A stretch of 9,254 bases of DNA from IMG/VR virus record IMGVR_UViG_2537562191_000043. The stretch is one strand, 5' to 3'. Source of the stretch: a virus (taxonomy: Duplodnaviria > Heunggongvirae > Uroviricota > Caudoviricetes). Shown here piece after piece: positions 3,001 to 6,000 of the stretch; within the stretch, counting starts at the first letter, position 1; each line of letters begins with the position of its first letter. The position numbers are program-made.

Positions 3001-6000
3001 GGATTCCCGCTACGTTCACTCTGACAATTCGTTGATCAAGTCACGGTATTTATTCAGTTCTTGCAACGCCTTACATGCACCCTCCCATCGTTTCTGTTTC
3101 CGCCCGGCGCGGCGCGCTTCTTTCCGTGATTTACGTAGCAGGTCACCTATAATGTTGTTCTGCACTGGCTGAACTGGTTGAACTGGTTGAACTGAATCAA
3201 TATCTGTTTTGCTTCCAACTCCCTCTACTGCCTGCCAGATGCCGTTTTTTACCTTTACGATCCCCTGGTTTTTCAACTTCCACAGCGTATCAATGACGTC
3301 ATTCAAATCAATATTGAGACCTTTAGAAATGCTGTCGGCTGTTGCTTTTCCTAATTTGTTCAATTCTGTGAGTACGGCGTTCATTTTTTTCTCCTGATAT
3401 TTTAATGTCGGTGGGGGTGTTATGCGATTGGTGAGGTGTCAGCTTCTTCTACCAGCTTTTCCAGTTCATCCAGCTTTCGGGAAAGAATTTCACCAAACAG
3501 ATGAAGTTCTGTATCTGCTGTGATCGGGATCGGAACAAAGCGTATTCCACTTCTGGCAAGTTGATTTGCGATTTCCAGGCACTGCCTTAATTCAACTGGT
3601 GATGCCTTTTGTCAACGTCGTTTTTTCGCTCATTGGTTTTCTCCAGAAATTTAACAATACCCGGAACCATCTCAATGGATGGTGTTCCGCATTGGTTACC
3701 CCAGACATCAAATCCATGCGAGGTGTGACGGGCGAACAGTTCTATCCGGGGAACATCGCCAAGAAGTTGCACAAGTTTTTCTCGCGCCATATCCGGCTTG
3801 CGGGAGTGATCAAGGCGCGGTGCAGTGAATGACTGGATTATTCCGGCGTTAATGCGTTCAGGCAGATTTCCTTTCACTGCAAAAAGGCAGTCTTCGCTGT
3901 TAGCGCGAGTGGTGCTACCCATACCCATGACCAGCTTGTCGGTCTGTCTTTTCCCGCATTTGTTCCAGGTTAATCCTTTCATCGTCACCAGACGAAAGCC
4001 CCACGCTTCTACTGAACCGCCCCGGAAATCCTGGAGACTAAACTCCCTGAGAAAGAGGTAAACAGGATGACTAAAAATACTCGTTTTTCCCCCGAAGTCC
4101 GTCAGCGGGCGATTCGTATGGTTCTGGAAAGTCAGGATGAATATGACTCACAGTGGGCGGCAATTTGTTCCATTGCCCCAAAGATTGGCTGTACGCCGGA
4201 GACTCTGCGTGTCTGGGTTCGCCAGCATGAGCGGGATACCGGGGGCGGTGATGGTGGGCTCACCAGCGCTGAACGTCAGCGTCTGAAAGAGCTGGAACGT
4301 GAAAATCGTGAACTGCGCCGCAGTAACGATATCCTTCGCCAGGCTTCCGCTTATTTTGCGAAGGCGGAGTTCGACCGCCTCTGGAAAAAATGATGCCACT
4401 GCTGGATAAGCTGCGTGAGCAGTACGGGGTCGGACCGGTATGCAGCGAACTGCATATTGCCCCGTCAACGTATTACCATTGTCAGCAACAGCGACATCAT
4501 CCGGATAAACGCAGTGCCCGTGCGCAGCACGACGACTGGCTGAAGAGAGAGATACAGCGCGTATACGATGAAAATCATCAGGTGTACGGTGTGCGTAAAG
4601 TCTGGCGTCAGTTGTTACGGGAAGGAATCAGGGTGGCCAGATGTACAGTGGCACGTCTCATGGCGGTTATGGGACTTGCCGGTGTTCTCCGGGGTAAAAA
4701 GGTCCGTACGACCATCAGCCGGAAAGCCGTTGCCGCAGGCGACCGCGTAAACCGTCAGTTCGTGGCAGAACGACCTGACCAGCTGTGGGTGGCTGATTTT
4801 ACTTACGTCAGCACATGGCAGGGCTTCGTCTATGTGGCGTTTATCATTGATGTGTTTGCCGGATACATCGTGGGGTGGCGGGTCTCATCGTCTATGGAAA
4901 CGACATTCGTGCTGGATGCGCTGGAGCAGGCGTTGTGGGCCCGTCGTCCGTCTGGCACCATCCATCACAGCGATAAAGGCTCTCAGTATGTGTCACTGGC
5001 CTATACGGAGCGACTAAAAGAAGCCGGATTACTGGCATCAACAGGGAGTACAGGCGACTCGTATGACAACGCGATGGCTGAGAGCATCAATGGTCTTTAC
5101 AAAGCGGAGGTAATACACCGTAAGAGCTGGAAAAACCGTGCAGAAGTGGAACTGGCCACACTAACGTGGGTGGACTGGTATAACAATCGACGATTGCTGG
5201 GAAGGCTGGGCCATACTCCTCCGGCAGAAGCAGAAAAAGCTTATTATGCTTCCATCGGAAACGATGATCTGGCAGCCTGAGTTCACAGATAAAACACTCT
5301 CCAGGAAACCCGGGGCGGTTCATGCACCGCGTTGACCATCGGTTGCTTTGTCTCGGAATGTCCAGGGGGATCTGCGTAAATGAGAGTGTATTTTTTCGTC
5401 ATAGCGCGTTTTCAAACTCATCAATGTAAAGTGCAACAAGTGCAACGCATCGTCTGAAATCGGCTGCGTCATGTGGAGCACCGAAGCTATGACCATAGAT
5501 ATTCTTTTTCAGTCCACATGCGATTGAGGCAAGAGTTGCGCTACTGATGCCAACATAGTCAGTCGATTGCCATTTCAAAACCTTCATAGCCAAATCTGAC
5601 ATTTCTTGTCTCCAATAAAAAACCGCCATCAGGCGGCTTGGTGTTCTTTCAGTTCTTCAATTCGAATATTGGTTACTTCTGCATGTGCTATCTGCGCCCA
5701 TATCATCCAGTGGTCATAGCAGTCATTGATATTCTCCGCTTCGATAACTCTGTTGAATGGTTCTCCATTCCATTCACCTGTGAATTTGAATTTCATTAAG
5801 TTTCACCTGTAAAAAAAGGAGCCGAAGCTCCTTTGATATTAAAATTCGAATTGTCTCGCCCGAAGGCTTTTTAACATTGGTCTTGCCCGTTCGAAAATGG
5901 CGCTTGTCTGGTCAATTCGTGTTGCCTCCCTGAGCAATGCGTCTCTGTTTTTCGTCACCGTGTAGAAAGTCTCAAACGCGATGTCATACAGCTTGCTCGC

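Follow-up and report, generated by a model that had tools for sequence, protein, structure and literature searches.

Two probable intrinsic terminators at cassette boundaries in the distal pL operon of a 933W/Stx2-86-type Stx prophage

Introduction

How are the distal genes of a leftward early operon expressed when hairpins with the anatomy of intrinsic terminators stand between them, each only a few nucleotides ahead of the next ribosome-binding site? This question is raised by a stretch of 9,254 nucleotides, hereafter the window, from a virus of the Caudoviricetes (IMG/VR record IMGVR_UViG_2537562191_000043). An earlier note, made from the sequence alone, had described two such hairpins as strong terminators and had proposed that the genes behind them depend on antitermination or on internal promoters. 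The computational analysis reported here indicates that the two hairpins, designated T-A and T-B, are very probably genuine Rho-independent terminators at the 3′ ends of exchanged cassettes in an N-antiterminated pL operon, where read-through after induction would depend on N and the distal genes would be silent in the lysogen. What the earlier note had overlooked is that both elements were already known or annotated, and that T-A is part of a cassette with an apparent promoter of its own.

The locus and its genes

The window comes from an Stx prophage of the 933W/Stx2-86 type (Traversvirus), of which it forms the left end, and its leftward genes therefore constitute the distal pL operon. Phage Stx2-86 is 100% identical to the window over positions 1380-9254, an insertion sequence (IS) excepted, and in this reference phage N, cIII, gam, bet and exo lie upstream on the same strand. 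The genes and elements that frame the two hairpins are the following.

5839..6462, minus strand: ant, AntA/AntB + P22_AR_C antirepressor gene (Pfam AntA 6.5e-28, P22_AR_C 2.5e-8; antB in Stx2-86)
5811..5834, minus strand: T-A, predicted intrinsic terminator, 3′ end of the ant cassette
5629..5796, minus strand: 55-aa ORF between T-A and T-B, homologous to lambda orf55 (lambdap35)
5614..5639, minus strand: T-B, intrinsic terminator, equivalent by sequence to lambda t'I (t5-lambda)
5399..5602, minus strand: 67-aa ORF, like Stx2-86 gp40 and HK022 gp32, with the Shine-Dalgarno sequence (SD) GGAG after T-B
4013..5322, plus strand: IS3-family insertion of 1310 bp (blastn breakpoints against Stx2-86; ALIL frameshift pseudoknot by Rfam)
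2755..2937, minus strand: HTH_17 (excisionase-like) gene (Pfam HTH_17 1.4e-6), with which the leftward array beyond the terminators ends

The 55-aa ORF shows 93.5% nucleotide identity to lambda 29102-29286 and is intact in 64 loci, its variable columns being distributed 14/6/18 by codon position; in lambda and HK022, terminators also precede orf55 and abut its SD. For the 67-aa ORF, the HK022 and P22 annotations use the SD-proximal ATG and not the ATG in the hairpin loop, and the RefSeq start of gp40, which lies within that loop, is probably wrong. The IS3-family insertion, of which an inverted partial copy is found at 1-382, splits an MT-A70 methylase gene downstream of T-B (C-terminal part at 3587-3988 by Pfam). 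The operon of this particular prophage is interrupted by the 1310-bp element, so that T-B now stands apart from the distal genes. On the plus strand, an annotated 197-aa ORF (6461-7054) has no Pfam match and is intact in close relatives; a 95%-identical copy contains four stops, in a frame guessed without gaps.

Structure and conservation of the two hairpins

The sequence, the predicted folds and a strict scan all confirmed two hairpins with U-runs on the minus-strand transcript, essentially where the earlier note had placed them. Both follow a gene on the same strand, T-A coming after the stop of ant and T-B coinciding with that of the 55-aa ORF, and both stems comprise five G-C/C-G pairs with three A-U (or G-U) extensions, closed by the tetraloops UUCG and UGAU, respectively. 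T-A reads AAAGGAGC-UUCG-GCUCCUUU followed by U7. Its core stem (5831-5827/5822-5818, GGAGC/GCUCC) is extendable by three A-U pairs to span 5834..5815, the seven U (5817-5811) lie directly 3′ of the stem, and the fold has a predicted free energy of -11.5 kcal/mol (z = -3.8; 0 of 200 shuffles as stable). The TAA stop of ant (5841-5839) is found 4 nt ahead of the extended stem, the SD AGGUGA (5808-5803) 2 nt past the U-run, and the ATG of the 55-aa ORF at 5796. T-B reads AAGCCGCC-UGAU-GGCGGUUU followed by its U-tract, with a core stem at 5636-5632/5627-5623 (CCGCC/GGCGG), six U (5622-5617) and then AUU to 5614, and a predicted free energy of about -13 kcal/mol (z = -2.9). As had been noticed earlier, its loop includes the stop codon of the 55-aa ORF (UGA, 5631-5629), and the SD GGAG of the 67-aa ORF (5613-5610; ATG at 5602) follows 4 nt past the U-run. 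The description of the hairpins as lying between consecutive genes and just ahead of the next SD thus holds for both. The epithet "strong" holds in part: the U-tracts are good, but the short GC stems of 5 bp are typical rather than exceptional.

A strict scan for a single hairpin with dG <= -7.5 and at least six T directly after it returned exactly two sites in the window, T-A and T-B, both on the coding strand and both intergenic, against 0.16 expected per dinucleotide-shuffled window; two sites were reached in 5 of 300 shuffles. A generic terminator scan returned 12 sites (9.7 expected in shuffles), among which T-B was listed and T-A was missed, possibly because the scan took the A-U-extended stem and was left with too few T in its tail window. 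When the window was compared with Rfam (E <= 1), T-A and T-B matched none of its families. A reading of the hairpins as integron attC-like sites or transposon ends was ruled out by their perfect, tetraloop-capped stems of 5-8 bp and by U-tracts confined to a single strand.

Both elements are conserved above the neighboring coding sequence. Among IMG/VR matches, T-A is unchanged in all 88 viral contigs, although the 30 nt ahead of it differ, and T-B shows single mismatches in 18 of 74. Compensatory changes were found neither in the stem of T-A, which is invariant in the 88 contigs, nor in that of T-B, where only single mismatches occur in the 74, and the conservation therefore supports function and not RNA structure specifically. 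For each element, homology to other phages stops exactly past the U-tract, in at least five contexts. The sequences downstream of T-A fall into at least five unrelated contexts among the IMG/VR matches, and the places that hold T-A include pL-distal, b-region-like and nin positions, the last ahead of ninB.

T-B and lambda t'I

T-B is identical (100%) to the corresponding sequence of lambda, P22 and phage L over about 65 nt. Every column from GTAACC, within the 3′ end of orf55, through the last U of the U6 run is the same in the window, in lambda 29106-29165, in P22 and in L. The P22 record L06296 annotates the terminator t'I there with the GenBank note [quoted passage not shown] from which the present assignment of T-B to t'I was taken, and the phage L record likewise has a terminator feature at the equivalent of T-B. 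The same element corresponds to the ARNold prediction t5_lambda (Table 4 of Bloch et al., 2014; PMC4195576). By sequence identity, then, T-B is the already described lambda t'I, predicted in 2014 as t5-lambda.

The likeness extends to the hairpin, the U-tract and some 45 nt of upstream orf55 sequence, all 100% identical to lambda t'I (near 29.1 kb), to the strand of the pL operon and to the stop codon in the loop. What follows differs: in lambda, xis and the pI promoter region come next, whereas here, as in HK022 and 434, T-B is followed by the 67-aa ORF and then the methylase gene. The excisionase-like gene is found about 2.7 kb beyond T-B, the 1.3-kb IS included, while lambda xis lies directly after t'I.

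The ant cassette and its predicted leader RNA

The ant cassette is found in different genomic neighborhoods, among them those ahead of orf55, of ninB, of a DksA-like gene and of a methylase gene, and wherever T-A occurs (88 of 88 viral contigs) it ends such a cassette. The following elements of its leader bear on its autonomy and control.

6685..6714, minus strand: predicted sigma-70 promoter, TTGACA-18-CATACT, 10/12 match
6664..6671, minus strand: upstream target copy CUUCAAAG (b1-like site)
6629..6656, minus strand: leader hairpin CCGCA...UGCGG + U6, between the upstream target site and the RNA
6504..6593, minus strand: Rfam sRNA-Xcc1 (RF02221) element with the consensus structure, in the ant leader (65.4 bits, E 2e-10)
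6472..6479, minus strand: downstream target CUUCAAAG, directly adjoining the ant SD AAGGAGG and complementary to the loop of the RNA (6539..6532)

Homology to VT2-Sakai begins exactly at 6714, the -35 of the predicted promoter, and diverged cassettes have TTGAC(A/G)-17/18-nAnAnT in the corresponding position. The leader hairpin, retained with a compensatory stem (CCAAC/GUUGG) in two other loci (L118 and L112b), is a possible leader terminator or attenuator. Lambdoid phages carry morons, promoter-gene-terminator cassettes in the concept of Hendrix and Juhala. The ant unit resembles them in its predicted promoter, single gene and terminator T-A, its varied contexts and the end of homology at the terminator; it differs in that ant is a regulatory (antirepressor) gene with an RNA-controlled leader and not a typical lysogenic-conversion gene.

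Descriptions of the sRNA-Xcc1 family have until now presented it as a virulence sRNA that acts in trans. As a side finding, 66 copies of the element were found 5′ of ant-type ORFs, and the copy upstream of ant in the window resembles the c4-type antisense RNA of P1 in its behavior: its loop is hypervariable and changes in step with the target sites. The loop word is CUUUGAAG in the window and CUUAUUUG in VT2-Sakai, a distinct specificity type; across 33 distinct cassettes at least 12 loop words occur, each mirrored exactly at both sites. The window element had no match to Rfam C4 (RF01695) at E <= 1 and matched sRNA-Xcc1 instead, while sister cassettes with the same T-A carry the C4 and isrK families at the same place. 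The P1/P7 immI operon (c4-icd-ant) and Gifsy-1 isrK-anrP-antQ likewise have a structured RNA in the ant leader, a loop complementary to an upstream site and to a site at the ribosome-binding site, and specificity types that co-vary. Unlike these systems, the present one has an RNA that matches RF02221 and not C4, lacks an icd-like ORF between the RNA and ant, and shows a single clearly hypervariable loop. A tentative but serious possibility is that T-A, more than a further stop overridden by N, closes an autonomous cassette in which an antisense RNA of the sRNA-Xcc1 type, c4-like and encoded in cis, controls the translation of ant. The hypervariable loop would provide many "immunity specificities," and T-A and T-B would serve in the lysogen to insulate three genes, orf55, the methylase gene and the excisionase-like gene, against the constitutive cassette promoter.

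Proposed N antitermination and the genes behind the terminators

A search of the prophage for an N-like antiterminator had been suggested earlier, and an N-family gene was indeed found upstream on the same strand in the identical phage Stx2-86 (19480-19863, minus strand; Pfam N_peptide E = 9.8e-16), outside the window. A 19-nt box with the core CGCUGACAAAGCG, an inverted repeat with 95% complementarity, is common to the pL-N leader and the cro-cII spacer of Stx2-86; these are the canonical positions of nutL and nutR, and the nut assignment, made from position and repeat, is tentative. Both the N gene and the nut-like boxes fall beyond the window, with the identical phage Stx2-86 as the sole source for them. 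Of the two routes proposed for the downstream genes, antitermination is favored by homology and context, and internal promoters are not, no sigma-70-like promoter having been found at the scan threshold on the minus strand between T-A/T-B and the downstream genes. Since an N-family gene and a nut-like box are present, T-B equals t'I and no promoter-like site lies behind the terminators, the genes behind T-A and T-B most plausibly need N-modified polymerase from pL, as in lambda.

In lambda, the pL operon terminators tL1, tL2 and tL3 are overridden by N/nutL antitermination. The two systems share several intrinsic terminators between early genes of the same strand, preceded by nut-like boxes and the gene of an N-family protein, but the 933W-type N and nut sequences are unlike those of lambda. 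Four clean terminators were found on the pL strand of Stx2-86, among them t2 of Bloch et al. (PMC4195576). The general model of lambdoid antitermination is summarized in PMC7547250, and intra-operon terminators of P22-like phages are discussed in PMC8022706; literature searches on the 933W nutL and terminators and on lambda tL3 and xis found no paper and no relevant paper, respectively. Read-through of such sites is not uniform, since in lambda mRNA measured by qRT-PCR was lower downstream of the predicted terminator t2 even in lytic growth, whereas in phi24B the same genes downstream of t2 were highly expressed (PMC4195576).

Alternative explanations

The most substantial alternative is that T-A and T-B act mainly as translation-sensitive attenuators, a ribosome close to RNA polymerase covering the 5′ arm and blocking the hairpin, so that termination would report translation of ant or orf55 and not N. 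The stop codons, in the loop of T-B or 4 nt before the stem of T-A, fit this proposal, the stop-in-loop arrangement is kept in lambda, HK022 and 64 other loci, and such attenuation would be compatible with N-dependent read-through. It is nevertheless unlikely as the main role: the stop-in-loop geometry is not needed for retention of the terminator, because P22 and phage L keep the terminator even though their upstream orf55 frame is a remnant. That same region prompts a different proposal, namely that the hairpins define Hfq-binding sRNAs derived from 3′ UTRs or stabilize processed mRNA 3′ ends. Upstream of T-B, a block of roughly 60 nt, GUAACC...GAAGAACUGAAAGAACACCAAG, rich in A-R-N repeats, would form the candidate sRNA together with the T-B hairpin; its conservation remains at 100% in P22 and L, whose ORF is truncated, and Hfq-bound sRNAs from prophage terminators are documented for StxS and HnrS. 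With neither an Rfam family at either hairpin in the window search nor signs of a promoter or processing site, this proposal is very improbable. StxS and HnrS themselves map elsewhere, in late regions, and are unrelated to T-A and T-B.

It has also to be asked whether the hairpins are chiefly conserved linkers for the exchange of modules by homologous recombination, termination being secondary. Homology breaks exactly past the U-tract in at least five contexts per element, and the hairpins are better conserved than the adjoining coding sequence; however, the common block of 20-25 bp offers little length for homologous recombination to be efficient, the same breakpoints are expected if cassettes carry their own terminators, as morons do, and the canonical terminator anatomy is confined to the transcribed strand, which makes a primarily recombinational role rather improbable. 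Chance hairpins without function deserve almost no credence. The short 5-bp GC stems and the modest result of the generic scan (12 sites against 9.7) could be cited for them, but they are opposed by the two strict-scan sites against 0.16 expected, the position of both in intergenic gaps on the coding strand, their conservation across dozens of mosaic phages and the annotation of T-B as a terminator elsewhere; the conservation data in effect refute chance already.

A model of the operon and its significance

Under the preferred explanation, that of cassette-end terminators in an N-antiterminated pL operon, T-B would travel with orf55 as an exchanged cassette, and T-A would end the ant cassette with its own promoter and c4-like RNA. 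In the lysogen, polymerase unmodified at nutL would be stopped at T-A and T-B, including polymerase that started at the ant cassette promoter, and the downstream genes, down to the excisionase-like gene, would remain silent. After induction, N-modified polymerase from pL would pass both terminators, and the closely set SDs would allow the next gene to be translated immediately. From sequence and homology we infer the termination efficiency of the two elements, the dependence of read-through on N and the insulating role.

This arrangement is ordinary lambdoid-phage biology and already known, because T-B is the described lambda t'I and T-A the terminator with which a mobile antirepressor cassette normally ends. 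It represents the textbook organization of a lambdoid early operon, in which several intrinsic terminators are passed by N-modified polymerase only. For the annotation of Stx prophages, it means that the distal pL genes, the excisionase-like gene included, should need N, and that the terminators mark cassette boundaries. The c4-like RNA could matter more than the terminators themselves. This side finding suggests that the widespread sRNA-Xcc1 family be reinterpreted as a c4-like RNA of antirepressor control, and where Stx and other lambdoid prophages reside together, its large set of specificity variants may determine the cross-talk of their antirepressors.

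Genomic Context of the Leftward Operon

The window covers the left end of a Stx-converting prophage. Positions 1380-9254 are 100% identical, one insertion excepted, to phi296, phi419 and Stx2-86 (Traversvirus). Homology to free phage genomes begins at 1380, within the tRNA-Arg(CCU) gene that is the prophage attachment site. The minus-strand genes to the right of int constitute the distal early leftward operon, which in Stx2-86 runs on via exo, bet, gam, cIII and an N-like gene to the immunity region. The landmarks of this end of the prophage are as follows:

1335-1406, minus strand, tRNA-Arg (anticodon CCU), adjoining a P4-like integrase gene
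1527-2771, plus strand, int
2755-2937, minus strand, HTH_17 excisionase-like gene, the last minus-strand gene
4013-5322, plus strand, IS3-family element (1310 bp, ALIL frameshift pseudoknot) inside an MT-A70 methylase gene

The IS3-family insertion, at which 126 bp of the Stx2-86 sequence are missing, splits the methylase gene and interrupts the leftward operon of this prophage between the second hairpin discussed below (T-B) and the excisionase-like gene. A second IS3-family copy, inverted and partial, occupies 1-382 (minus strand) at the left edge of the window, in the host flank.

Two Intrinsic Terminators on the Transcribed Strand

Two hairpins followed by U-runs, T-A and T-B, flank a 55-aa open reading frame (ORF) of this operon:

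5834..5815, minus strand, T-A hairpin, AAAGGAGC-UUCG-GCUCCUUU
5817-5811, minus strand, T-A U-run
5639..5620, minus strand, T-B hairpin, AAGCCGCC-UGAU-GGCGGUUU
5622-5617, minus strand, T-B U-run

Sequence and folding bear out the earlier note, which had placed both hairpins just upstream of the next Shine-Dalgarno sequence (SD), one of them with a stop codon inside its loop. T-A (predicted stability -11.5 kcal/mol, z = -3.8) starts 4 nt after the TAA stop (5841-5839) of ant, a 207-aa gene coding for an AntA/P22_AR_C antirepressor (Pfam), and its U-run is followed after 2 nt by the SD AGGUGA (5808-5803) and by the ATG of the 55-aa ORF at 5796. At the other end of this ORF, the first two bases of its UGA stop (5631-5629) lie within the tetraloop of T-B (~-13 kcal/mol, z = -2.9), 3' of which come GGAG (5613-5610) and an ATG at 5602. 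A generic consensus scan was uninformative, yielding 12 terminator-like sites versus 9.7 in shuffles, and missed T-A, perhaps because the tail window holds too few T once the stem is extended by A-U pairs. A strict scan (single hairpin, dG <= -7.5, followed directly by at least 6 T) returned T-A and T-B and no others in the window, both on the coding strand; 0.16 sites are expected per dinucleotide-shuffled window, and two sites were reached in 5 of 300 shuffles.

T-A is a widespread and invariant terminator of ant cassettes. Its 24-nt hairpin and U-run are unchanged in five annotated phages whose ant 3' ends differ by up to ~16%, and in 88 of 88 IMG/VR matches chosen solely by a degenerate upstream anchor. 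Homology stops past the U-tract, and at least five unrelated contexts follow, including orf55 (the window), a DksA-like zinc-finger gene (VT2-Sakai), ninB of the nin region (POCJ13) and a methylase gene (F451). On the other side, a promoter is predicted (TTGACA-18-CATACT), and homology to VT2-Sakai begins exactly at the -35 TTGACA of this promoter, position 6714. Together, these borders indicate that T-A closes a self-contained unit composed of the predicted promoter, a leader, ant and the terminator. Terminator t2 of the reference phage Stx2-86 (L001, position 15971, minus strand, between orf61-like and orf73-like genes) reads GGAGC-UACAG-GCUCC-U6; it shares the stem GGAGC/GCUCC with T-A (5831-5818) and has a different loop, and the 5' arms of both read SD-like AGGAG.

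By sequence identity, T-B is a member of the lambda t'I family. Across the stretch that starts at GTAACC..., includes the hairpin and ends with the last U of the U6, the window shows no difference from lambda, P22 or phage L. The hairpin is annotated as a terminator in the phage L genome and, labeled t'I, in the P22 ea region (GenBank L06296), where a note states that the function was inferred from terminator sequence identity to bacteriophage lambda t'I. Bloch et al. (2014; PMC4195576, Table 4) predicted the same sequence to be a terminator of the exo-xis region, t5-lambda. The 55-aa ORF shares 93.5% DNA identity with lambda 29102-29286, the GeneMark ORF lambdap35 located between ea8.5 and xis. 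It is intact in 64 loci, variable columns being distributed 14/6/18 by codon position, and looks coding. Since orf55 of lambda and HK022 is also preceded by hairpin/U-tract elements (t3, t4-lambda) abutting its SD, the terminator-SD-orf55-terminator layout is old and conserved.

Among 74 viral contigs bearing the upstream anchor of T-B, the hairpin is identical in 56 and has a single stem mismatch in 18; no compensatory stem change was found among them, so that conservation argues for function and cannot alone prove RNA structure. Homology ends directly past the U-tract, 3' of which at least five different contexts occur. In nine viral contigs (including L022, L035, L042, L043, L064, L068, and L072), the U-tract is followed by ATTACCTGATTTGCAGGTTCGATTCC..., which contains the T-arm motif GCAGGTTCGATTCC also present in the tRNA-Arg of the window, and which may be an att site or a piece of a tRNA lying against the terminator. 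For gp40, the next gene (231-nt CDS), RefSeq places the start at the ATG at 5629-5627 in the T-B loop. This start is probably wrong, because the ATG nearest the SD (5602-5600 in the window) is the annotated start of the homologs in HK022 and P22, and 5602 is likely the true start.

Antitermination and Read-Through

The earlier note had made expression downstream of the hairpins depend on N/Q-like antitermination or on internal promoters. A promoter scan found no sigma-70-like promoter behind T-A or T-B on the minus strand. An N-like antiterminator, for which the note had suggested a search, is encoded by Stx2-86, where a protein matches Pfam N_peptide (E = 9.8e-16). In that phage, the pL-N leader and the cro-cII spacer, which are the nutL and nutR positions, share a 19-nt box (core CGCUGACAAAGCG) as an inverted repeat; both the N-like gene and the nut-like box lie outside the window and are known from Stx2-86. 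From the N region to the excisionase-like gene, the strict terminator scan detects four clean terminators on the pL strand of Stx2-86: T-A, T-B, t2 of Bloch et al., and one past the gene following N.

On its transcribed strand, the N-headed operon has a canonical terminator at each of two cassette ends. This arrangement agrees with the standard model of lambdoid phages, whose early transcripts end at intrinsic terminators unless the polymerase is N-modified (summarized in PMC7547250). T-A and T-B would stop unmodified polymerase, including any from the ant cassette promoter, so that orf55, the 67-aa ORF (gp40), and the methylase and excisionase-like genes would stay silent in the lysogen; after induction, N-modified polymerase from pL would read through both. 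N-dependence of read-through is a textbook idea, and the finding of the earlier note is a correct recognition of biology that is already known. A minor and non-exclusive rival reading is that the hairpins may act as translation-sensitive attenuators: with stop codons so near to both stems, termination might be less efficient when a ribosome follows the polymerase closely. According to the phage L paper (PMC8022706), intra-operon terminators are common and their roles are not firmly known, partial termination and the arrest of spurious transcription without antitermination being its suggestions. Read-through of such sites is not uniform, as lambda has less mRNA downstream of predicted terminator t2 even in lytic growth, whereas phi24B shows high expression of the same genes (PMC4195576).

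A Putative c4-Like RNA in the ant Leader

The leader of ant harbors an RNA element that we consider more interesting than the terminators:

6664-6671, minus strand, upstream target site CUUCAAAG, 78 nt upstream
6629-6656, minus strand, leader hairpin CCGCA...UGCGG + U6
6593..6504, minus strand, Rfam sRNA-Xcc1 (65.4 bits), between the cassette promoter and ant
6472-6479, minus strand, downstream target site CUUCAAAG, abutting the ant SD
6461-7054, plus strand, annotated hypothetical 197-aa ORF

The second hairpin loop of sRNA-Xcc1, CUUUGAAG, is the exact complement of both target sites. In 90 loci, a covariance model trained on six copies recovered 66 copies (in L006-L009 and L084-L168), all of them immediately 5' of an ant-type ORF. 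The 33 distinct cassettes display at least 12 loop words, and in each cassette both flanking sites, at the same positions, are exact loop complements. This loop and two-site logic is that of the c4-icd-ant immunity operon of P1/P7, and sRNA-Xcc1 in the ant leader appears to behave like a P1 c4-type antisense RNA. In the literature found, sRNA-Xcc1 figures only as a virulence sRNA acting in trans; no link to c4 or ant was found in it.

The conserved leader hairpin, located between the upstream target site and sRNA-Xcc1, has its stem compensated to CCAAC/GUUGG in L118 and L112b and may function as a terminator or attenuator in the leader, similar to the one of isrK. The 197-aa ORF lies on the antisense strand of the ant promoter, the leader, and sRNA-Xcc1. 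It has no Pfam match, four stops interrupt it in a relative of 95% identity when the frame is guessed with gaps ignored, and it may have been called spuriously. Sister cassettes ending in an identical T-A (L085, L087, L088, L092, L102, L105, L110, and L117) carry at the same position, ~0.7-0.95 kb upstream of T-A, Rfam isrK and C4 (and c4-a1b1) rather than sRNA-Xcc1, which suggests that the RNA control modules of antirepressor genes are interchangeable.
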